From: Thermoproteota archaeon
GTDB taxonomy: Archaea > Thermoproteota > EX4484-205 > JAAOZP01
Direction of reading: 5' to 3'
DNA length: 64,000 nt
NCBI GenBank assembly: GCA_049700215.1
Contig: JBNAVT010000002.1
Location: 41,981-105,980, forward strand
The notes beneath the pieces are model-generated. The model made no database searches and was not told the origin of the DNA. It saw only the letters and a list, made by a program, of their open reading frames with translations. Made by a program: the position numbers and the translations under genes. Numbering within the stretch: position 1 is the stretch's first letter; every line of letters begins with the position of its first letter. This document shows, one piece after another, positions 33,507 through 46,057 of this stretch.

Positions 33507-34907
33507 TTAGACGATAGCCTCCCCCCTCTCGGTTAGGGAATAATACTCCCTCTTCCTACCCATGACCCTCCTAGACTCCCCCCTCTTAACATACCCTTTT
33601 TCAACAAGGTCGGAAAGATGCTGGTAGACAGTTGGAATCCTGACCTTCATACCGTATTTCTCCCTTAGCCCCCTCCAAACCTCGTACCCATACATGTTTT
33701 TCTCAGACAGTAGCCTAAGGATAGCTGTCTTAGTCGGGCCCAGTCTAATACCTCCGCTCAACTCCTCTATCAACACGCCTAGGCTGGACTTTCTGAAGGC
33801 TATTTCCTTCATAACCCTCGGATCCTTGAGGCCGCTTCCCGTGACGACGCAAACCACCCTGGCGTCCCTGCTTAAGCCTCCGCTTCTAACCAGCTTAATC
33901 AAGCCGGCTAGGGAAAGGCTTCCAGCCGGCTCTGCAAGTATGCCTTCCTTCTCAGCCAGTAGACTCAGGGCTTCGAAGATCTCTTTCTCGCTGACGGATA
34001 CTGCGAGCCCGCCTGTCTGTCTTATTGCGCTCAGGGCAGCGTTTCCAAACCTGGGGTTGGCCACGTTTAAGTCGAATATCCTGCTTCTCGGCTCGGCTTC
34101 AGCCTCAACGGTTTCTAAGCCTCTTTCGAAAGCCTTTACTATGGGCTTACAGTCCTCCGGCTGGACTCCGACTATTCCTATACTGCGCTTAGCGACGCCG
34201 AGCTCCCTCAGCTCCTTCAGCATCTTGAAGGTTGCGTAGACTAGGCCTCCTTCTCCCATCGGGAGAATAACATAGTCTGGTTGCCTCCCGCTGAGCTGAA
34301 GCAGTATTTCAAGCATGATTGTTTTCTTAGCCTCGTTTATCAAGGGGTCGTGCTCCACGGCTACGATAGCCCCCCTAGTGCTACGCTTCCCAAAGGAGTT
34401 GACTACGCTGACTTCTGCACCATATATTATCATCTGGTAGAGCTTTCCAAGGTCTATTGTGGGCTTTACCTGAACGTGCGTCTTTAAACCTGCTTTAGAG
34501 GAGTATGCGGCCAGCGAGGCGCCAAGGTTCCCGGTTGAATAGGTGGAAATCCTCCCGTAGCCGAGACTCAGGGCGACGGATACGAATAAGGCTGAACTCC
34601 TGTCCAAGTAGGAGCCCGTTGGCTCAACCGTCTCATCCTTAATCCAAAGCTCTTCAACCCCGATGCTTTTCTCAATCCTCACCCCGTGCTGGAGCATTGT
34701 GGTCCCCTCTCCGAGAGAGACTCTGAACTTTCTCTCGACAGCCGGCAGTATCCCGCCATACCTCCATATTCCATGCTCCCCGGGCTCCTCTAAGAAGGAT
34801 GGTTTAACCTCCAGTGTTAATCCTTGTCCACACTTATCACACAGCTTCCTCTCCACGTTGAAACTGTAGGCTGCTCCGCAGCCCGTGCATCTTAGAACAT
34901 GGTTCAA
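33507..34907 (-). CDS. thrC: Threonine synthase with N-terminal zinc ribbon and an unusual C-terminal PadR-like winged-helix domain
   Basis: 466 aa. N-terminal CTGCG...CDKCG ribbon and a PLP fold-type II body (GNLGASLAAYSSKAG...). The C-terminal ~85 aa TKTAILRLLSEKNMYGYEVWRGLREKYGMKVRIPTVYQHLSDLVEKGYVKRGESRRVMGRKREYYSLTERG match the PadR family pattern in one continuous ORF. Confidence 0.8.
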   Translation of the reverse strand: MNHVLRCTGCGAAYSFNVERKLCDKCGQGLTLEVKPSFLEEPGEHGIWRYGGILPAVERKFRVSLGEGTTMLQHGVRIEKSIGVEELWIKDETVEPTGSYLDRSSALFVSVALSLGYGRISTYSTGNLGASLAAYSSKAGLKTHVQVKPTIDLGKLYQMIIYGAEVSVVNSFGKRSTRGAIVAVEHDPLINEAKKTIMLEILLQLSGRQPDYVILPMGEGGLVYATFKMLKELRELGVAKRSIGIVGVQPEDCKPIVKAFERGLETVEAEAEPRSRIFDLNVANPRFGNAALSAIRQTGGLAVSVSEKEIFEALSLLAEKEGILAEPAGSLSLAGLIKLVRSGGLSRDARVVCVVTGSGLKDPRVMKEIAFRKSSLGVLIEELSGGIRLGPTKTAILRLLSEKNMYGYEVWRGLREKYGMKVRIPTVYQHLSDLVEKGYVKRGESRRVMGRKREYYSLTERGEAIV

Positions 34908-37696: not shown

Positions 37697-37865
37697 AGGA
37701 GTTCCTCCCGATTGTTAAGGCGGTGAAGATTTAAGGTTTACGGTTTAAACTAAAACTGTTTTACAGAATTAAAAAACTCTTTCTAAGTCAAGCGCTGCTC
37801 TAAATTAGAAGCATGTCTGCCGATGCTCTTCGACACTCGGTTAACACCGCATTGGCTTAAGCATC

Positions 37866-37880
37866 AGGTTTATATATCGT
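37866..37880 (+). promoter_or_regulatory. TATA box of the luxE-like operon
   Basis: ggtttatatatcg lies ~27-35 nt upstream of the ATG at 37905. Confidence 0.5.
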
Positions 37881-37904
37881 GTTATCGGATTCTAACCCTA
37901 ACCT

Positions 37905-39161
37905 ATGAATTCCTCAGAAATATTTGAAGCCGCGTCTAAAAGTAGGCTTTTAAAAGATCCTTACGTGGAAAAAATATGGGCCTTGATGAGTGATAAAAAC
38001 CTTTTCTCAAAGTCTCCAGACTATCTCAGTAAACTCAGGAAGAGTCTTCTCAGAGATGCTTTAGACTATTTTTCGAGACATAGTGATTATTACCGTGAAC
38101 TTTTCGAGAGGCTTGGAATAAGACCCCGGGATGCTGAGCTGGAGGATCTAGCGAAGCTCGCAGTCCCATCGGATGTTCTAAGGGGAGAGGGGCATAAGCA
38201 GTTTCTAATCAAAGACGTGGAGGAGAATGGGGAGTATTTCATGTCAAGCGGCACGACTAATCCTAATCCTGTAAAGGTTTACAGGAGTCCTCTCGACCTT
38301 GCGATCATGATACTGGGCAATACCTATCTTTTCGAATACGTTTACGGGAAGGAGGTTGAAAGAGAGAGGGGAATCGCGCTTTTCATGGCTGCCCCAGAGC
38401 TTAGGCACAGGCTTAACTTTGTGGCTTTCGTGCATCTCACTCTAGAGTCAAAGAAGATTCCTCTTCTCTACGGCATGAACCTGGTTGAGGGGACTACGGA
38501 GGGGAAGCCTTGGCAGAAGCTTGTCCCCAACCAGGAGAATGTCCTTCGTTTCCTGAGAAGCAGGGAGGAGCCTAAACTCCTTTTCACCGCGCCCGCCGGC
38601 GTCTATTTGCTGTCTAAAAAGTTTAAGGATATGAACATTGTTCATAGGCTCGCATACAGGCTGCTGAAAATCATGCCGATAAACCTTGGAAGAGGAGGCG
38701 TCATCGTAACAGGCGGTGGCACAAAGGGCTTTGACCTGCCGCCTTACGATAAGACCGTTGAATTCTCCAGAAAATATTTTGTTTCACGCGACCAGGATGG
38801 AGGTGCTCAGGAGGTTCCCTTCATGGATGTTTACGGGATGACTGAGACATTAACCGCTATGCTGGATAGGTTTGGTGAAATGGATAAGATACCGCACCCG
38901 CTTTCCGAAGTTTTCATACTAAACCCTAAAACCTTCGAGTTAGCCAAGGAGGAGGATGCGGAGGGTATTGTTGGAGTATTTAATCCTTTCACAACATCTT
39001 GGCTTGAAATATTTTATCCCGGGGACATTATGCGTAGCCATCCCTCAAACAGGTATTATGGGAAGGAGTACGTGTTCGTCAGGAGGCTGAGTGTCGACGA
39101 GGGCTGGAGTCTTCAGCGAGCGTGCGGCGGAACCCTGGAGGAGCTAATGGGCAGAGGCTAG
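37905..39161 (+). CDS. LuxE-like acyl-protein synthetase (adenylate-forming, PaaK/LuxE superfamily)
   Basis: 418 aa. FMSSGTTNPNPVKVYRS is the SSGTTG-type adenylation motif of LuxE/PaaK enzymes. A Cys 10 residues from the C-terminus (...QRACGGTLEELMGRG) matches the position of the LuxE acylation cysteine. Directly followed by a LuxC-like gene. Confidence 0.6.
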   Translation: MNSSEIFEAASKSRLLKDPYVEKIWALMSDKNLFSKSPDYLSKLRKSLLRDALDYFSRHSDYYRELFERLGIRPRDAELEDLAKLAVPSDVLRGEGHKQFLIKDVEENGEYFMSSGTTNPNPVKVYRSPLDLAIMILGNTYLFEYVYGKEVERERGIALFMAAPELRHRLNFVAFVHLTLESKKIPLLYGMNLVEGTTEGKPWQKLVPNQENVLRFLRSREEPKLLFTAPAGVYLLSKKFKDMNIVHRLAYRLLKIMPINLGRGGVIVTGGGTKGFDLPPYDKTVEFSRKYFVSRDQDGGAQEVPFMDVYGMTETLTAMLDRFGEMDKIPHPLSEVFILNPKTFELAKEEDAEGIVGVFNPFTTSWLEIFYPGDIMRSHPSNRYYGKEYVFVRRLSVDEGWSLQRACGGTLEELMGRG

Positions 39162-40625
39162 TTGGACACTATGCTTGAGCTTAAACCGTTCTGCAGCCAC
39201 AGGCATACTGCCGTGGAAAAAACACAGAGCCATTACAGGATCCTAGAGGTTAGCAGAGAAAGCCTGCGGGAGATCATCAATAGGTCTTCAGAGGTTCAGG
39301 GAAGGCTTTCAAGCCTAGGGGTTCGGGAACGGCTTGGAGTAATAGAGGAGATGGGTAAAATATGGAGGGAGAAGCTTAGCGATGGCAGGCTTGAAAACCT
39401 GAAGAAGATTCTTGCTAGAACAACAGGGTATGGTGAAAAGCTGATAGAAATGGAGTTTTCACTGATCCCGATGGTTTTAAGCGGCGAAAACATCCGTGAA
39501 AATTTGGAATACTCCCCTGCCAGGGACATCCGGGTGTTTGAAAGATTCGTCGAGATGAAGAATGGTGAGAGCTTTAGAATCGCCCCCGCAGGGCCTGTAC
39601 TCATCATAAGCTCAGGCAACTCGCTCCTTCCAGCGATTATTCCTTCAACCATATCCCTTGCAACTGGAAACCTCACTATTGTAAAACCCTCTCTTTCAAA
39701 CTACCTAGGGGTTGTTGAAGTATTTGGTACACTCTGGGAAATAGCCTTAAACTCCGAGGCGGCGAGGACCATGATGGACACGCTTGTCATAAGCTACTTT
39801 ACGCATGACAGTCCTTCGCTGAGATACCTCCTTGGTGAAGCAGAACTCGGCGTGGTAAACTTTTGGGGTGGTGAGCCTGCTAGAACCAGTGTTCTGAGAA
39901 TGGTTTCGGAAAACCCGAATCACCCTAAGATCCTTGTAAACGGGCCCTTGACGGGGTGTGCTATCGTAGATGAAAAGTCTGCTGACGAGAAAACGGCTGA
40001 AGGCTTAGCGAGAAACATGGTACTTTACGATCAACAGTTGTGCAGCTCCCCAACTTCTGGGGTTTTCATCGGCTCCTGGCAGAACGCCCTCTCCTTCACC
40101 CGTATGGTTGAAAGATTCTTGGACGAGATTGGATCGGAATTCGAGTCTGATTTCGACGATACAAGCATTTTTCTCACACAGTCCGCTAGAAGGATCTTCC
40201 AGTTGAAGGGATCTCACGTTCTTTCCTCAAAAAACCCTAAGAATTTTTGGACGCTAGTGGTCTCAAGGGGGAAAAGCCTTCTGGACGAGGTGGTCAACTC
40301 ACTCCCCGCCTTTAACATCTATACTCGTAGAAGATTCTTGGAGATGGTTGTTGTAGAATCTATAGACGAGGCGCTGGAACACGTCAGTAAGGTTCCTGGT
40401 TCACCTGCTTTCAAAGGAGTAGACGGTGTCCAAACCATAGGGTATTCTGTAAACTGGGATGAAAAGATTTTTGAAAAACTGGTTTCCCTCGGGGTATTCA
40501 GGATCGTGCCTTTAAGCGACATGTTTATGAGAAGCCCCATCGAGCCCTACGATGGCGTCGCATTGTTCTCCGCCTTCACCAAAATAGTTTACCGTAGGGA
40601 TTTAGCGCTATCCTTAAAACCATGA
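39162..40625 (+). CDS. LuxC-like acyl-CoA/acyl-protein reductase
   Basis: 487 aa, similar in length to LuxC. PVLIISSGNSLLPAIIPSTISLATGNLTIVKPS matches the LuxC H/I-I-SGN-P core, and MVLYDQQLCSSPTSG gives Cys ~294 in CSSP context like the LuxC catalytic Cys. Confidence 0.65.
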   Translation: MDTMLELKPFCSHRHTAVEKTQSHYRILEVSRESLREIINRSSEVQGRLSSLGVRERLGVIEEMGKIWREKLSDGRLENLKKILARTTGYGEKLIEMEFSLIPMVLSGENIRENLEYSPARDIRVFERFVEMKNGESFRIAPAGPVLIISSGNSLLPAIIPSTISLATGNLTIVKPSLSNYLGVVEVFGTLWEIALNSEAARTMMDTLVISYFTHDSPSLRYLLGEAELGVVNFWGGEPARTSVLRMVSENPNHPKILVNGPLTGCAIVDEKSADEKTAEGLARNMVLYDQQLCSSPTSGVFIGSWQNALSFTRMVERFLDEIGSEFESDFDDTSIFLTQSARRIFQLKGSHVLSSKNPKNFWTLVVSRGKSLLDEVVNSLPAFNIYTRRRFLEMVVVESIDEALEHVSKVPGSPAFKGVDGVQTIGYSVNWDEKIFEKLVSLGVFRIVPLSDMFMRSPIEPYDGVALFSAFTKIVYRRDLALSLKP

Positions 40626-41620
40626 AGATACTTGTAACCGGGGCCTCCGGCTTCCTCGGCGGGCATTTAATCGAGGAAATGGTTTCTAAAGGGTATGATG
40701 TCGTAGGCATGGTTAGGAAAAGCAGCGATACGAGTTTCCTGAGAAGCCTCGGCGTGAAGCTTAGGGTTGGGGATCTCACTGTTCCTGAAAGCCTCGAGAA
40801 GGCTACGCGGGACATAGACATCGTCATACATCTTGCTGCATACTACACTTTCTTCGGGGAAAAAGAGACGTATAGGAGGGTTAACGTGGAAGGCACAAGG
40901 CTTCTTCTAGAGGCTTCTTTAAGAAACAATGTTAAAAGATTCGTCTACTGTAGCTCCACTGAGGCAATAGGTCCTGTTAAGAACCCTCCGGCGGAGGAGG
41001 ATTCCCCGCCGAATCCTTCCTACGAGTACGGGAGGTCTAAACTCGAGGCTGAAAAAATAGTTAGGAATTATGGTGAAAGGGGTGTTGAGTACACGATTCT
41101 GAGACCATCCGGAATATATGGTCCAAGGAATATTGACGATATCTCCTACTGGTTTATCACCGCCTACGCTAAAAACACTCTCCCGACAAGAATTATCGTT
41201 GGGGATGGGAGGAACCTTATACAGTTCGCGTACGTGAAGGACGTGGTTCAGGGTTTTCTCCTGGTTCTGGAAAAGCCTGAGGCCTCTGAAAACCAGACTT
41301 ATTTCATAAGCGAGGACAGGGCTTATACTTACCTGGAGGTTTACGAAATATTGTCTGAACTCTGCAATAGGGCTCCCCCCAGGATTCATATTCCCCCGAT
41401 GCTTGCAAAAGCGGTTGTGGCTCCTGTGGATTTGTTCAACAGGCTGAGGGGGAGAGTTGTTTTCACTTGGAGGATCAGTACTGTGAACGATCTTACTTGT
41501 GACAGGGCATACAGCGTCAGGAAAGCAATGAGGGAGCTGGGTTTCAAGCCTAAGTATGATCTTAAGACGGGCTTAAGAGAGACCGTGGAATGGTATAGGG
41601 AGAACGGCTATATCCGGTGA
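40622..41620 (+). CDS. NAD(P)-dependent epimerase/dehydratase-family SDR (extended SDR, 3beta-HSD/cinnamoyl-CoA-reductase-like)
   Basis: 332 aa. MKILVTGASGFLGGHLIEE (TGxxGxxG), ...YCSSTEAIG..., YGRSKLEAE (YxxxK). Start overlaps the LuxC-like stop by 4 nt. Confidence 0.8.
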   Translation: MKILVTGASGFLGGHLIEEMVSKGYDVVGMVRKSSDTSFLRSLGVKLRVGDLTVPESLEKATRDIDIVIHLAAYYTFFGEKETYRRVNVEGTRLLLEASLRNNVKRFVYCSSTEAIGPVKNPPAEEDSPPNPSYEYGRSKLEAEKIVRNYGERGVEYTILRPSGIYGPRNIDDISYWFITAYAKNTLPTRIIVGDGRNLIQFAYVKDVVQGFLLVLEKPEASENQTYFISEDRAYTYLEVYEILSELCNRAPPRIHIPPMLAKAVVAPVDLFNRLRGRVVFTWRISTVNDLTCDRAYSVRKAMRELGFKPKYDLKTGLRETVEWYRENGYIR

Positions 41621-41641
41621 CGAGTCGACCGGCTTAGCCTG

Positions 41642-42388
41642 ATGGTTAGAGCAATAAAATTTATCTTAAGCCGGGCTGAACCCCTTGCAAACACGATGAA
41701 GATCAGGGTGCTCCTTGGAACTATCGACAGCTCACTCGTTTATTCGGATGCGGTTGTTGCCATAGATGTTTTACGCTCATCTACAACCATATTGACAGCC
41801 TTGGCGAATGGCGCTAAGAGTGTTATACCGGCTGCGTCTGTGGACGAGGCTCTAACTGTTGGAGGCAGGCTTCAAGCAGTTGTTGGCGGGGAGGTAAACA
41901 GTGTTAAGCCCCCTATGTTTCACCTAGGAAACTCTCCACTGGAATATGTTCGAAGGAGAATAGGTGGGAAAACAGTTGTACTCTACACCTCCAGCGGAAC
42001 AAGGCTCCTAAGGTTTCTAATGGCTGTTTCGGAAAAAGTCTTCGTTGGGGCGGTTGTCAACGTTTCTAAACTTGTGGAGCACATTGTGGAAGAAGGTTTC
42101 GGCAACGTGGCGATCGTCACGGCGGGTAAAACCGGCTCACCCGCTCTTGAAGACTCTTATTGCGCAGGCCTCCTCGTTAAAAGTCTTCCTTGGAACGAGT
42201 GCGATAGGAATGCTGAGGTCGTGATGAAGATCGCTGAGCTCAAAATAGATGTTGTGAAGAGGTCGATTCACGCTTTGGAGCTTGTTAAACTCGGCTTGGA
42301 GAAAGACGTGGAGTATTCCCTAACTCCTGACCGCGTCAGTATAGTGGCTGCCGCTGATCCTTTCAAGGGATGTATCCAGCTCCCTTGA
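41642..42388 (+). CDS. 2-phosphosulfolactate phosphatase (ComB) family protein
   Basis: VVAIDVLRSSTTILTALANGAKSVIPA is the ComB family core. The true start is probably the internal ATG giving MKIRVLLGT.... Last gene of the luxE-like operon. Confidence 0.7.
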   Translation: MVRAIKFILSRAEPLANTMKIRVLLGTIDSSLVYSDAVVAIDVLRSSTTILTALANGAKSVIPAASVDEALTVGGRLQAVVGGEVNSVKPPMFHLGNSPLEYVRRRIGGKTVVLYTSSGTRLLRFLMAVSEKVFVGAVVNVSKLVEHIVEEGFGNVAIVTAGKTGSPALEDSYCAGLLVKSLPWNECDRNAEVVMKIAELKIDVVKRSIHALELVKLGLEKDVEYSLTPDRVSIVAAADPFKGCIQLP

Positions 42389-42686
42389 CAACCCCCTTCT
42401 TCAACATTTTCCTCTGCTCCTTGCTCTGCTCATACATCCTGACGGCAAGCGAGTGTGAACACATCCTTCTCTTCAAATAGCCTAGGCAGCTACAGTTATA
42501 GTTGCCGTAAGCGTCTCTCGAAACTATGTAAACCCCGTGGTCTCCCTTAACCTCGTAGCTGGATTTATCAAGCTGGCTGATCCTTTTCTCTTTAAGAATC
42601 GTCTTCGCCTTAAGCACCAGCTTCTCGACTCCTGTCGCATCCCTCTTCTCGCCTTCTTCACCCATCTCTTCAAGACCCCTGCCCAA
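42363..42686 (-). CDS. Small SWIM-type zinc-finger protein
   Basis: 107 aa. CSCLGYLKRRMCSHSLAV gives a CxC...CxH SWIM-like ligand pattern. Overlaps the ComB 3' end. Confidence 0.45.
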   Translation of the reverse strand: MGRGLEEMGEEGEKRDATGVEKLVLKAKTILKEKRISQLDKSSYEVKGDHGVYIVSRDAYGNYNCSCLGYLKRRMCSHSLAVRMYEQSKEQRKMLKKGVVKGAGYIP

Positions 42687-44130: not shown

Positions 44131-44838
44131 ATGAAGCGTGACGCTGGAAGGCGGGTAGCCGGGGTCTTCAGGCCTGCTGAAGTAATAGTTGCCTCCGGAG
44201 TAAGACCTGGTGTTAAGCCGAGTGATGTCTACGAGGTTTGCAGCGAGGCTTTGAAACAGGGTATTAGGGATGTTTGCATACCGAGCGTATACGTCGGGGA
44301 GGCTGGGGCCCTCTTCGAGAATACTGGTTTAAAGTTGTCGACAATGATATCTTTCCCAACAGGACTGATGCCCCTCGAGCTAAAGATGATGGAGATTAGG
44401 CTCGCCTCTGAGCAGGGTGTTGAGGAAGTATACTTCTACCCTAATCTGGGAAACTATCTTGACAGTAGGATTGTCGAGTTCGAGTCCGAGCTTTCGAGGA
44501 TAACGGAGGCTTCTCAGCTAATCGGCTTGAGAAACGTTAAGCCGGTTGTCGAGATGGGCTTGGTTTCGGAAAAACAGTTAAGGGAGATCATTAGTATTTT
44601 CGAATCATCAGGTTTCGACACGGTGGTCGTCTCATCCGGCTTCGGCTTGAAGAGAATGAGTCTTGAGGAGCTGTCGATTTTGAAAAACATTGAGCAGGAT
44701 GTGACGATCGAGGCCCACTGCAGGCTGGGCTCGCTGCAGGACTTGCGGAGCCTGGTTGAAAACAGGGTGTACAAAGTATGTACGGTAGACTACAAGGTTG
44801 CTCGGGAAGAAGGCTCCGTCAAGCGGCTTGAAGAATAG
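44131..44838 (+). CDS. DeoC/LacD-superfamily class I aldolase (deoxyribose-phosphate aldolase-like)
   Basis: 235 aa. ...KLSTMISFPTG...MMEIRLASEQGVEEVYFYPNLG... and ...VVVSSGFG fit a DeoC-type TIM barrel. The start is uncertain. Confidence 0.55.
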   Translation: MKRDAGRRVAGVFRPAEVIVASGVRPGVKPSDVYEVCSEALKQGIRDVCIPSVYVGEAGALFENTGLKLSTMISFPTGLMPLELKMMEIRLASEQGVEEVYFYPNLGNYLDSRIVEFESELSRITEASQLIGLRNVKPVVEMGLVSEKQLREIISIFESSGFDTVVVSSGFGLKRMSLEELSILKNIEQDVTIEAHCRLGSLQDLRSLVENRVYKVCTVDYKVAREEGSVKRLEE

Positions 44839-44908
44839 TTCGTGGGAAAAACATATATTCGGACCCAGACAGGTCAACACGGCTTTGTCGCCGTACAGGA
44901 TTGCTTTA

Positions 44909-46057
44909 ATGCCCGGCGATGGGATTGGGCCTGAGGTGGTGAGGGAGGCGGTTAAAGTTGGATGGGGCCTACTTGAAGCCATGGGTGTCCCAATGGTTTT
45001 CGAAGAGTTTCCTAACGGTGCTGAACACTACCTTAAAACCGGTGAAACGCTTTCAGAATATACTTTGGGAAGGCTGAAGGGTTTTGACGCGATTTTCTTC
45101 GGGGCTGTTGGAGACCCGAGGGTTAAGCCAGGTGTTCTCGAGAAAGGTGTTCTCCTGAGGATGCGCTCCTCACTGGATCTTTACGTGAACCTGCGGCCAG
45201 TCAGGCTCCTCAAGGGTGTTGAAACACCTTTGAAAACATCTGGGGATAAGAGTATTGACTTCGTAGTCATACGTGAGAACACTGAGGATTTCTACGTAGA
45301 CATGGGTGGCAGAGTGTGTGAAGGATGCTCAAGGCTCTTCGAGTATACTGTTGAAGCCGGCGGGGCTAAGGGGAGCAGATACAGGGTTGAGGTTGAAAGT
45401 AGGAATGGCGAGGCCTTTCAAATAGGAATAATATCGGTTAAGGGTGCTGAAAGAATAGTAAGGTATGGTTTCGAATACGCCCTTAGAAGAGGCTTGAACC
45501 TTATAACTTTCGTTGATAAGGCTAACGTGCTCACTGAAACATACGGTCTCTGGAGGGAGGTCGTTGAAAAAGTGTGGGGAGAGTACGGCGGCAGGGTTGG
45601 TAGAGAATTCATGTATGTTGATGCTGCAGCGCTACACATGGTTTTAAACCCTGGCCGCTTCAAGATAATTGTTGCTCCAAACATGTTCGGAGACATTTTA
45701 ACGGACTTGGGGGCAGCGATCCAAGGCGGTCTGGGTTTCGCGCCGAGTGGAAACATTAATCCTGAGGGTGTTTCGATGTTTGAGCCTGTTCACGGGAGTG
45801 CTCCGGACAAGGCTGGCCTAAACATAGCTAACCCTGTTGCGGCGATACTTACCTTCTCCCTCATGCTGGAACACTTGTGGAGCAGAAGCGGTGATAAGCG
45901 TCTGCTCGAAGCCTCGAAAATAATTGAGACGGCTGTTGAGAATGTTTTAGCAAGTGGCAGGTGCAGGACGCTGGACATGGGCGGGGTCTCTAAGACGAGT
46001 GAGATGGGGGACGCTGTTCTGGATGAGTCTAAACGCTTATTGACGGATGGAAGATGA
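44909..46057 (+). CDS. Beta-decarboxylating dehydrogenase (3-isopropylmalate / homoisocitrate / isocitrate dehydrogenase family)
   Basis: MPGDGIGPEVV N-terminus, ...LDLYVNLRPVR..., NMFGDILTDLGAAIQGGLG. The start was moved to the internal ATG at 44909. Confidence 0.85.
   Translation: MPGDGIGPEVVREAVKVGWGLLEAMGVPMVFEEFPNGAEHYLKTGETLSEYTLGRLKGFDAIFFGAVGDPRVKPGVLEKGVLLRMRSSLDLYVNLRPVRLLKGVETPLKTSGDKSIDFVVIRENTEDFYVDMGGRVCEGCSRLFEYTVEAGGAKGSRYRVEVESRNGEAFQIGIISVKGAERIVRYGFEYALRRGLNLITFVDKANVLTETYGLWREVVEKVWGEYGGRVGREFMYVDAAALHMVLNPGRFKIIVAPNMFGDILTDLGAAIQGGLGFAPSGNINPEGVSMFEPVHGSAPDKAGLNIANPVAAILTFSLMLEHLWSRSGDKRLLEASKIIETAVENVLASGRCRTLDMGGVSKTSEMGDAVLDESKRLLTDGR

Follow-up and report, generated by a model that had tools for sequence, protein, structure and literature searches.

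A conserved LuxE/LuxC-type gene pair and its short-chain dehydrogenase partner as a candidate carboxylic acid reduction module of archaea

Does a Thermoproteota archaeon encode a carboxylic acid reductase of the LuxE/LuxC type, and which of the genes around it belong to it? The question is raised by four plus-strand open reading frames (ORFs) in a stretch of 64,000 nucleotides (assembly GCA_049700215.1, contig JBNAVT010000002.1, positions 41,981 to 105,980; referred to as the window) with a G+C content of 48.8%. The ORFs are located at 37905-39161, 39162-40625, 40622-41620 and 41642-42388 (the last one called from its longest-ORF start), as listed in a preliminary description of this DNA, and are referred to as genes 1 to 4. 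The preliminary description had read them as a four-gene operon encoding a LuxE-like synthetase, a LuxC-like reductase, an extended short-chain dehydrogenase/reductase (SDR) and a ComB-like phosphatase. The finding is real, and this interpretation of the core holds for three of the four genes. Genes 1 to 3 probably encode a carboxylic acid reductase of the LuxE/LuxC type together with a coupled aldehyde reductase; on the evidence of sequence and predicted structure they would convert an acid via the aldehyde to the alcohol, the aldehyde being formed as luminous bacteria form their fatty aldehyde. Gene 4 is a lineage-specific neighbour with its own promoter and lies outside the conserved module.

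The assignment of gene 2 (39162..40625, plus strand; 487 amino acids, TTG start with an alternative ATG 9 nt downstream) as a LuxC-family acyl-thioester reductase is supported by several searches. Its product matches the Pfam LuxC family (PF05893) with 76.1 bits (cut-off 21) over residues 53-469, and LuxC (7xc6) was the only entry in the PDB that was matched, both with the sequence (phmmer, 2e-10) and with the family profile (5e-17). In a Foldseek search with the AlphaFold2 model of the protein (predicted local distance difference test, pLDDT, 90.6), 7xc6_A ranked first over the full length (E 2e-22, template modelling (TM) scores 0.76/0.78), followed by generic aldehyde dehydrogenases (ALDHs) with TM scores of 0.62-0.70. 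The cysteine of a CSSP motif, placed at about residue 294 in the preliminary description, is exactly residue 294 (codon 40041..40043, plus strand). It lies in an invariant YDQQLCSSPT block and is itself invariant in 45 orthologs. In the alignment YDQQLC294SSP stands opposite YDQQACFS of 7xc6_A, which contains the catalytic cysteine of LuxC (Cys296 in the numbering of PMC9157457), so that Cys294 is the predicted thioester-accepting residue. The NCBIfam bioluminescence equivalogs (NF052244 and NF052251 for LuxE/LuxC) gave a different picture at the level of orthology: gene 2 scored 54.5 bits against the LuxC equivalog, with a cut-off of 750, and is thus not an ortholog of bioluminescence LuxC. 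Oxidising ALDHs carry ELGG at the position of the general-base glutamate. Gene 2 has NGPLTG (260-265) at this place, opposite FGPKKS of LuxC, and the general-base glutamate is absent. Gene 2 is thereby of the non-hydrolysing, reductive type of ALDH that LuxC represents (PMC12041015). In the N-terminal half, the only part that was mapped, the positions that line the LuxC cleft are hydrophobic or small in gene 2 (M97, L101, M104, G108, I111, P157 and I160). Orthologs of gene 2 are named 'aldehyde dehydrogenase family protein' or 'acyl-CoA reductase' (NCBI) in the databases.

Gene 1 (37905..39161, plus strand; 418 amino acids) is more divergent. The comparisons described below support its assignment as a very divergent LuxE-type acyl-protein synthetase, that is an ANL enzyme predicted to lack the C-terminal subdomain, and not as a phenylacetate-CoA ligase (PaaK) or coenzyme F390 synthetase, in line with the earlier proposal. 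Only faint matches to its N-terminal part were found in NCBIfam (FlxY at 4e-6, PaaK, LuxE at 0.02 and F390 synthetase). The PaaK models scored 16.3 and 14.5 bits (cut-offs 700 and 646) and covered the N-terminal 90 residues only, and the F390 synthetase model (TIGR03335) scored 11.9 bits (cut-off 458.7). Searches of PDB chains with the sequence and with a 22-member profile returned nothing significant. An exhaustive search of 1.84 billion representatives identified only 60 relatives at E<=1e-3, indicating that the gene 1 family is small and isolated. Two orthologs, P0006 (76% identity) and P0028 (65%), narrowly pass the Pfam LuxE threshold (PF04443) with 30.1 and 25.9 bits against 24.9. Furthermore, phmmer connected gene 1 by weak full-length matches to P0287 (3e-7) and P0290 (1e-5), which are solid PF04443 members (6e-40 and 9e-33). 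An HHalign comparison of the gene 1 family with P0287 gave a probability of 98.8% over 352 columns and the full length, with the cysteine tails aligned. In this alignment TGGGTKG of gene 1 is opposite STGGWKG, QRACGGTLEELM is opposite QRGCAIKLEEFM, and QRACGG aligns with QRGCAI of the LuxE member.

The residues expected for LuxE chemistry are present in gene 1. The FMSSGTT motif and the cysteine near the C-terminus, both noticed earlier, were recovered: S114-S115-G116-T117 (38244..38255, plus strand) form the ANL phosphate-binding (A3-like) motif within the P-loop-like FMSSGTT and are invariant in 45 orthologs, and Cys407 is the sole cysteine of the protein, located 11 residues from its C-terminus and invariant in the same 45 orthologs. 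The TGGGTKG segment (T269-G275; 38709..38729, plus strand), which includes Lys274, is the counterpart of the LuxE GGGWK loop, and T269, G270, G271, G272, K274 and G275 are likewise invariant in this set. An arginine pair and the C-terminal tail follow (R393-R394 to Q404-R405-A406-C407-G408; 39081..39128, plus strand), and all of these residues are invariant. LuxE itself is without a C-subdomain; its catalytic Lys238 is part of the GGGWK loop, and Arg354/Arg355 and, in a flexible motif at the C-terminus, Cys364 complete the set (PMC9157457; for the mechanism also PMC12041015); K274, R393/R394 and C407 of gene 1 occupy the equivalent places. After the A7-like YPGD374 just 44 residues remain, implying that the C-terminal subdomain, which in PaaK carries the catalytic lysine and the CoA site, is missing. 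The structural model agrees: its N-domain folds like that of PaaK, and the ANL C-subdomain is absent. Its closest solved folds are PaaK-family CoA ligases and EhpF at about 15% identity; LuxE could not surface in these fold searches, as 7xc6 resolves no more than 118 residues of LuxE. From residue 408 on the pLDDT is below 50 and the tail is disordered, and we propose that the tail with Cys407 acts as an acyl-carrying swinging arm. Relatives with 28-37% identity retain an R-x-G/A-C-G tail, several of them terminating in ...REGCG. Orthologs are labelled 'hypothetical protein' or, in several cases from JGI, 'phenylacetate-CoA ligase'.

Gene 3 (40622..41620, plus strand; 332 amino acids) matches the Pfam families Epimerase (2.8e-51, 174.7 bits) and NAD_binding_4 (1.5e-23), as expected for the extended SDR reported earlier, and is best matched among solved structures by 3wj7, a putative oxidoreductase. 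The Ser-Tyr-Lys triad (S111, Y136 and K140) and Arg32 after beta-2 are invariant. In SDRs an arginine at this position marks a preference for NADP(H), and gene 3 is therefore considered an NADP(H)-type enzyme and is proposed to be the aldehyde reductase of the module. The best NCBIfam matches were HpnA (2e-47), SdmB (2.5e-39) and OleD (1.2e-38), all below the family cut-offs (161.7 vs 367.65 for HpnA, 133.3 vs 580 for OleD and 136 vs 600 for SdmB).

The three genes are closely packed. The TTG start of gene 2 directly abuts the TAG stop of gene 1 (0 nt), and genes 2 and 3 overlap by 4 nt (ATGA); these two junctions are as first reported. The promoter of genes 1 to 3 (37860..37876, plus strand) consists of a TATA box, TTTATATA, at 37869-37876, with AGCATCAGG, resembling a transcription factor B recognition element, before the box. 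TTTATATA and the adjoining preceding AAGCATCAG show no change among nine Brockarchaeota-like loci that vary on either side of them. The box begins 36 nt upstream of the ATG of gene 1, which implies a leaderless or near-leaderless mRNA, and the best explanation of this layout is that genes 1 to 3 form one leaderless operon.

The conservation of the arrangement was analyzed in one genome per species, with lineage names as given in the database records and simple longest-ORF gene calls in the fetched loci. A gene 1 relative was found in 92 genomes; 80 loci were kept, and gene order was counted in the 69 loci with enough downstream sequence. Gene 1 is directly followed by gene 2 in 64 of the 69 loci, and the order of genes 1, 2 and 3 is kept in 61, to which a locus with a frameshifted gene 3 (L054) can be added. 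This arrangement is far beyond chance, and the link to gene 4 is found in one lineage only, so that the neighbourhood is conserved across archaea as a three-gene and not as a four-gene unit. Gene 1 of the window shares 93-96% identity with proteins from Candidatus Brockarchaeota metagenome-assembled genomes and from related hot-spring genomes of this kind. The trio is carried by Brockarchaeota, hot-spring Nitrososphaeria, Methanomethylicia, Methanomassiliicoccales, Odinarchaeia, Sulfolobales/Desulfurococcaceae, Thermofilaceae, Methanofastidiosia, Conexivisphaerales and Archaeoglobales. Cultured carriers are Methanosuratincola petrocarbonis LWZ-6 and M. verstraetei LCB70 (Methanomethylicia) and Zestosphaera tikiterensis NZ3. 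With about a dozen archaeal lineages represented, the module is typical of archaea and not, as the preliminary description had it, unexpected in an archaeon. Between lineages the identity is 54-72% for gene 1, 49-68% for gene 3 and 38-51% for gene 2. The pairwise-identity matrices of the three proteins correlate with r = 0.88-0.92, indicating that genes 1 to 3 were inherited as one unit. No further gene was consistently linked to the trio among the neighbours across the 80 loci.

More distant branches of gene 1 always retain the LuxC partner, with the two genes side by side at identities of 30-45%, as seen in L081 (45% identity), in the Theionarchaea-like loci L082-L084 (33-35%) and in L088. 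A bacterial branch with 28-33% identity to gene 1 includes Pseudonocardia sediminis WP_165438172.1. In three of the five bacterial loci (L089:8001-11705, L090:8001-11759 and L094:6001-9727) a LuxE-like gene ending in ...REGCG is followed by a LuxC-like gene with the motif QQ[LM]CSSPTE and by a zinc-dependent alcohol dehydrogenase (Zn-ADH) of the medium-chain dehydrogenase/reductase (MDR) type. The presence of a non-homologous Zn-ADH in the position of the SDR argues that the third step is the reduction of an aldehyde to an alcohol, and this replacement is the strongest computational argument for such a step.

Several further observations were made at these distant loci. In L082 (240-4044), L083 (3730-6652) and L084 (300-3670) a radical SAM/SPASM gene directly precedes the LuxE-like gene or extends into its start, and there is no SDR; the LuxE-like and LuxC-like genes overlap by about 25 nt in different frames. 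An apparent LuxE-like/LuxC fusion of 884 amino acids (P0251) was found on two metagenome contigs; it may be real or may be a frameshift artefact, its relatives having separate overlapping genes. In L081 (4596-9747) a FIST-domain protein is encoded upstream of the pair, and a 157-amino-acid ORF without a Pfam match and a V4R-domain protein follow downstream; FIST and V4R are both small-molecule sensor or binding domains. The neighbours of the bacterial trios include TetR, MarR and AraC regulators and glyoxalase and ring-hydroxylase genes.

Taken together, the following pathway is the best reading of genes 1 to 3, and it agrees with the sequence of acid, thioester, aldehyde and alcohol proposed in the preliminary description, which is strengthened by the bacterial Zn-ADH. 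Gene 1 would adenylate a carboxylic acid with ATP, using S114-T117, Lys274 in the GGGxKG loop and Arg393/Arg394, and would transfer the acyl group from acyl-AMP to its own Cys407 on the flexible C-terminal tail. The tail would then swing into gene 2, where the acyl group would pass to Cys294 by transthioesterification. With NAD(P)H, gene 2 would release the free aldehyde and, like LuxC, would be unable to hydrolyse the thioester because it is without the ALDH general-base glutamate. Gene 3 would finally reduce the aldehyde with NADPH to the primary alcohol. We infer every chemical step from homology, folds, invariant catalytic residues, operon structure, co-inheritance and the Zn-ADH replacement, and likewise infer the complex between the products of genes 1 and 2 and the use of cofactors. 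At a guess, and with low confidence, a fatty, isoprenoid or aryl monocarboxylic acid of hydrophobic character would serve as the substrate; we lean to such an acid because the mapped cleft positions of gene 2 are hydrophobic and the relatives of gene 3 are of a lipid type.

A number of points weigh against this pathway. All support for the chemistry is computational. Of the two Pfam assignments expected from the preliminary description, the one to LuxC was obtained for gene 2 directly, but gene 1 itself showed no Pfam match even at E<=10 and is thus below the PF04443 gathering threshold that its two orthologs pass; against the bioluminescence LuxE equivalog it scored 13.9 bits with a cut-off of 550. 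In gene 2 the residue next to the catalytic cysteine is an invariant Ser295, where LuxC has the essential Phe297. The C-terminal third of LuxC, which forms part of the cleft, could not be aligned to gene 2 by sequence, and the fatty-acyl cleft may not be conserved. Some genomes keep only part of the module: gene 1 stands alone in L044 and L076 (Methanomethylicia) and in L046 and L047 (Sulfolobales), genes 1 and 2 lack gene 3 in L017 and L030, and in L025 (8001-9523) gene 1 is intact, gene 2 is missing and just a C-terminal stub (residues 277-332) is left of gene 3. No pointer to the substrate was found in the neighbours, the literature or lipid profiles. The loci share no substrate theme, their sporadic neighbours being M20 peptidase, Zn-ADH and ornithine cyclodeaminase genes, and the lipid data for strain LWZ-6 list only archaeol, glycerol dialkyl glycerol tetraethers and glycerol monoalkyl glycerol tetraethers. 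Finally, HpnA, SdmB and OleD act on 3-oxo or 3-hydroxy lipid acids and not on aldehydes, and gene 3 could act before the reductase.

The last point leads to an alternative that we consider unlikely, in which the aldehyde formed by genes 1 and 2 is the end product, used for example in a transamination or condensation, and gene 3 acts upstream or on another group. Gene 3 would then prepare the acid for gene 1, for instance as a 3-ketoacid reductase or as a 3-hydroxy-acid dehydrogenase that decarboxylates its substrate like OleD or NSDHL/SdmB. All three of its best NCBIfam relatives act next to the carboxylate of lipidic substrates. In its favour, the SDR OleD partners the ANL enzyme OleC in the Ole pathway, and the LuxE-like/LuxC-like pair also occurs without an SDR or alcohol dehydrogenase in the distant branches L081-L084 and L091. 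However, the scores of gene 3 for these families are far under their cut-offs, the Zn-ADH in the place of gene 3 in bacteria fits aldehyde reduction better than keto-acid chemistry, and both the gene order and the ATGA overlap between genes 2 and 3 fit a step that comes after gene 2.

A second alternative keeps the chemistry and changes the role: the module would be catabolic or protective and, with broad specificity, would turn organic acids from the surroundings (fatty acids of short or medium chain length or aromatic acids) into alcohols; the butyrate/butanol link noted for Brockarchaeota would be one example. The bacterial relatives among TetR, MarR, AraC, ring hydroxylase and glyoxalase-type genes are in settings typical of detoxification or catabolism, and the published description of Brockarchaeota (PMC8065059), which names a butanol dehydrogenase and a 'putative aldehyde dehydrogenase' and leaves the butanol pathway open, would suit this role, as would the fact that the module is dispensable in some genomes. 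We nevertheless regard it as rather improbable. Fermentative anaerobes own an ATP-free route via aldehyde:ferredoxin oxidoreductase (AOR), compared with which the module would be costly, consuming ATP to AMP and two NADPH per acid. Moreover, the 54-72% identity of gene 1 across phyla suggests one specific substrate, and the module is kept in a streamlined genome of 1.54 Mb (L013; PMC12244365).

It is quite improbable that gene 1 is a PaaK-type acyl-CoA ligase and gene 2 a CoA-dependent acyl-CoA reductase, with free acyl-CoA as the intermediate. This possibility is suggested by the closest solved folds of gene 1 and by the database names of the orthologs of both genes, and it is favoured by the observation that LuxC also accepts acyl-CoA (PMC9157457). 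Against it stand the PaaK scores of gene 1, which amount to 14.5-16.3 bits where 646-700 are needed, and the missing PaaK-type C-terminal subdomain. The single cysteine in the terminal tail is invariant even at 28% identity (...REGCG), and HHalign groups the gene 1 family with LuxE.

A further alternative concerns gene 4 and therefore Brockarchaeota only. The product of gene 4 has a ComB-family (2-phosphosulfolactate phosphatase) fold, with matches to Pfam PF04029 (6e-53, 179.7 bits; cut-off 26.4) and PDB 2yyv (1.5e-35), and the family membership proposed earlier is thus confirmed by Pfam. It scored below the cut-offs of all eight NCBIfam ComB models (TIGR00298, 103.6 vs 175.05). The gene most likely extends from 41696 to 42388 (plus strand; 230 amino acids), judged by start-codon conservation: ATG 41696 is invariant in 9/9 Brockarchaeota-like loci and ATG 41642, the start of the longest ORF, is not conserved. 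The gap between genes 3 and 4 then becomes 75 nt, in place of the 21 nt given originally. A separate TATA-like box, TTTATCTT (41660..41667, plus strand), is conserved in nine loci and begins 36 nt before ATG 41696, the same spacing as for the box of gene 1, indicating that gene 4 has its own promoter. A single TATA box for all four genes, as initially suggested, therefore applies to genes 1 to 3 only. The ComB-like gene adjoins the trio in just 8 of the 69 loci, all Brockarchaeota-like, and the four-gene operon was therefore abandoned. No T-run occurs between genes 3 and 4, and read-through from gene 3 into gene 4 is for this reason possible.

In this alternative the phosphatase would supply the acid from a 2-phospho-hydroxy acid such as phosphosulfolactate, phospholactate or phosphoglycerate, and genes 1 to 3 would reduce it to a diol, for example sulfolactate via sulfolactaldehyde to 2,3-dihydroxypropane-1-sulfonate. 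ComB enzymes (EC 3.1.3.71) release 2-hydroxy acids, which would suit a supply of acid. The ComB-like gene follows gene 3 in 8/8 testable Brockarchaeota-like loci as well as in the window, with no T-run terminator in between. However, the other 61 loci do not have it beside the module, its start codon lies at +36 from a conserved TATA box of its own, and it falls below all ComB equivalog cut-offs. Lineages that have a ComB neighbour and lineages that do not share 55-72% identity in their core proteins, an argument for one and the same substrate throughout. The idea thus has little probability, and since the core module is found without ComB in every other lineage, the phosphorylated or sulfonated substrate suggested in the preliminary description was not retained. 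In Brockarchaeota the ComB-like gene may or may not feed the pathway.

Three other roles were discarded: one in coenzyme M biosynthesis was rejected because most carriers of the trio have no linked ComB and several are not methanogens, one in the synthesis of the butanetriol backbone of butanetriol dialkyl glycerol tetraether lipids because this backbone arises by methylation and the distribution is mismatched, and a bypass from aspartate via aspartate semialdehyde to homoserine was set aside because the bacterial relatives occur in actinobacteria with the canonical pathway.

The spacing seen at genes 1 and 4 recurs in the window. The motif TTTATMTW occurs 10 times, which is the chance level. 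At three of the 10 boxes an ATG with a long ORF is found at exactly +36 (gene 1, gene 4 and the ORF at 44131), against a background of 0.9% per site, and at three further boxes an ATG with a long ORF is found at +32 to +35. Seven of the boxes (10888, 26652(-), 29431, 37869, 41660, 44095 and 54663(-)) precede by 29-36 nt the start codon of an ORF that encodes 85 amino acids or more. This geometry suggests that transcripts are mostly leaderless and provides a usable promoter rule for this genome. The ORF at 44131-44838 encodes 235 amino acids without a Pfam match and overlaps by 41 nt an isocitrate/isopropylmalate dehydrogenase gene that was called from a TTG (44798-46057); the start of the dehydrogenase gene may be located further downstream than 44798. 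Convergent to gene 4, and overlapping its last 26 nt, a 107-amino-acid ORF (42363-42686, minus strand) has a SWIM-like Cys/His pattern (CSCLGYLKRRMCSHS) and no Pfam match; it is kept in Brockarchaeota-like loci (cluster 12). Also kept in these loci (cluster 23) is an unusual enzyme-regulator fusion of 466 amino acids (33507-34907, minus strand), in which a threonine-synthase-like pyridoxal phosphate-dependent (PALP) domain is joined to a C-terminal PadR-type winged helix; the N-terminus of the protein is Cys-rich. An Rfam scan of the window returned nothing at the gathering score.

Two lineages show recurrent neighbours of the trio. In many Methanomassiliicoccales loci (L029, L034-L039, L049-L051, L053, L054, L062, L074 and L075; for example L037:11785-12738, L074:12988-13941 on the minus strand and L035:7388-7927) a MenA-like UbiA prenyltransferase gene is located 35-190 nt downstream of the trio on the same strand, and many of these loci also have a GrpB-family gene before the trio and a convergent radical SAM gene (weakly PTO1314/HpnH-like). 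This arrangement may extend the pathway, specifically in this lineage, to a prenylated product. In the Methanomethylicia loci L012, L013, L016, L023, L024 and L076 (e.g., L012:5063-5979) a glutaredoxin-like gene follows the trio (in L076 it follows gene 1 alone) and overlaps by 4 nt a gene in which the catalytic subunit of ferredoxin-thioredoxin reductase is fused to a rubredoxin-like domain; a convergent DUF169 gene is next in most of these loci.

A wider reading, which we offer tentatively and which may well prove wrong, is that the trio marks one specific and unrecognised metabolite, a primary alcohol or aldehyde, common to distant anaerobic archaea, namely Odinarchaeia (Asgard), Thermoproteota methanogens, Methanomassiliicoccales, Brockarchaeota, Desulfurococcaceae-type Sulfolobales and Thermofilaceae. 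Such a metabolite could be, for example, a precursor of a lipid, a cofactor or a prenylated compound, the last with regard to the MenA-like gene after gene 3 in Methanomassiliicoccales. If this reading is true, the module, together with the bacterial Zn-ADH trio, would represent a third widespread route of carboxylate reduction, with a protein cysteine as carrier, besides carboxylic acid reductase (CAR) and tungsten AOR.

New is a reductase subfamily of the LuxE/LuxC type with a CSSPT motif that is coupled to a predicted aldehyde reductase and retained across archaeal phyla. Already known are the LuxCE chemistry, of which the archaeal module is a predictable extension, and the occurrence of LuxC/LuxE pairs outside luminous bacteria. 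Literature searches for LuxC/LuxE, acyl-protein synthetases and fatty acid reductases in archaea, or in the lineages that carry the trio, returned no description of the module and no paper in which LuxC is named along with one of these lineages. If the proposed chemistry is true, LuxE/LuxC acid reduction is no curiosity of luminous bacteria but a conserved and horizontally shared module of anaerobic archaea, whose hosts include Asgard archaea and recently cultured Thermoproteota methanogens. The module would then supply the function of a protein family now labelled 'hypothetical protein' or mislabelled 'phenylacetate-CoA ligase' and 'aldehyde dehydrogenase', would point to an archaeal alcohol or aldehyde overlooked by lipidomics confined to known archaeal lipids, and could provide thermostable, carrier-protein-free carboxylic acid reductases for biocatalysis. 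The cultured hosts LWZ-6, LCB70 and NZ3 make the pathway directly testable.

Among known systems, the LuxC-LuxE complex of Photobacterium phosphoreum (7XC6; PMC9157457) is similar in having an ANL-type synthetase without the C-terminal subdomain, with a lysine in a GGGxK loop, an arginine pair and a cysteine in a short flexible C-terminal tail, and in having an adjoining ALDH-superfamily reductase that retains only the catalytic cysteine; it is also the best structural match of gene 2. The archaeal module differs in sequence, with about 19% identity to LuxC and a relation to LuxE that is detectable by profile comparison only. Gene 1 is about 45 residues longer than LuxE, gene 2 has QQLCSSPT instead of QQACFS, with the essential phenylalanine replaced by serine, the operon includes an SDR, and the hosts are anaerobic archaea. 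Neither LuxD acyltransferase nor luciferase genes were found among the annotated recurrent or tightly linked neighbours of the 80 loci or in the annotated flanks in the window. LuxC/LuxE homolog pairs also occur outside bioluminescence in flagellin glycosylation islands of Aeromonas and Enterobacteriaceae, where the pairs are known from annotation only and their function is putative (PMC7874193, PMC4875605). These pairs sit with acyl carrier protein, FabG, AMP-ligase, pse and glycosyltransferase genes, none of which is beside the archaeal trio in the 80 loci.

PaaK-family enzymes and EhpF have the closest solved folds to gene 1, but the C-terminal subdomain and the CoA chemistry of PaaK are missing in gene 1. 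CAR, with its adenylation, peptidyl carrier protein and reductase (A-PCP-R) domains, together with an aldehyde reductase, and likewise fatty acyl reductase (FAR), resembles the proposed pathway in the ATP/NADPH-dependent reduction of an acid via thioester and aldehyde to the alcohol, and gene 3 shares the NAD_binding_4/thioester-reductase-type extended-SDR fold with CAR and FAR. In contrast to CAR, the archaeal module has no phosphopantetheine carrier domain, the acyl group would be carried by the synthetase's own cysteine, and the thioester reductase belongs to the ALDH superfamily and not to the SDRs. The bacterial Zn-ADH trio differs from the archaeal one in its identity of only 28-33%, in its MDR instead of SDR as third enzyme and in its bacterial regulatory and catabolic setting, but it belongs to the same LuxE-like/LuxC-like subfamily, with the CSSPT motif, the terminal cysteine and an alcohol-forming NAD(P) enzyme in third position.

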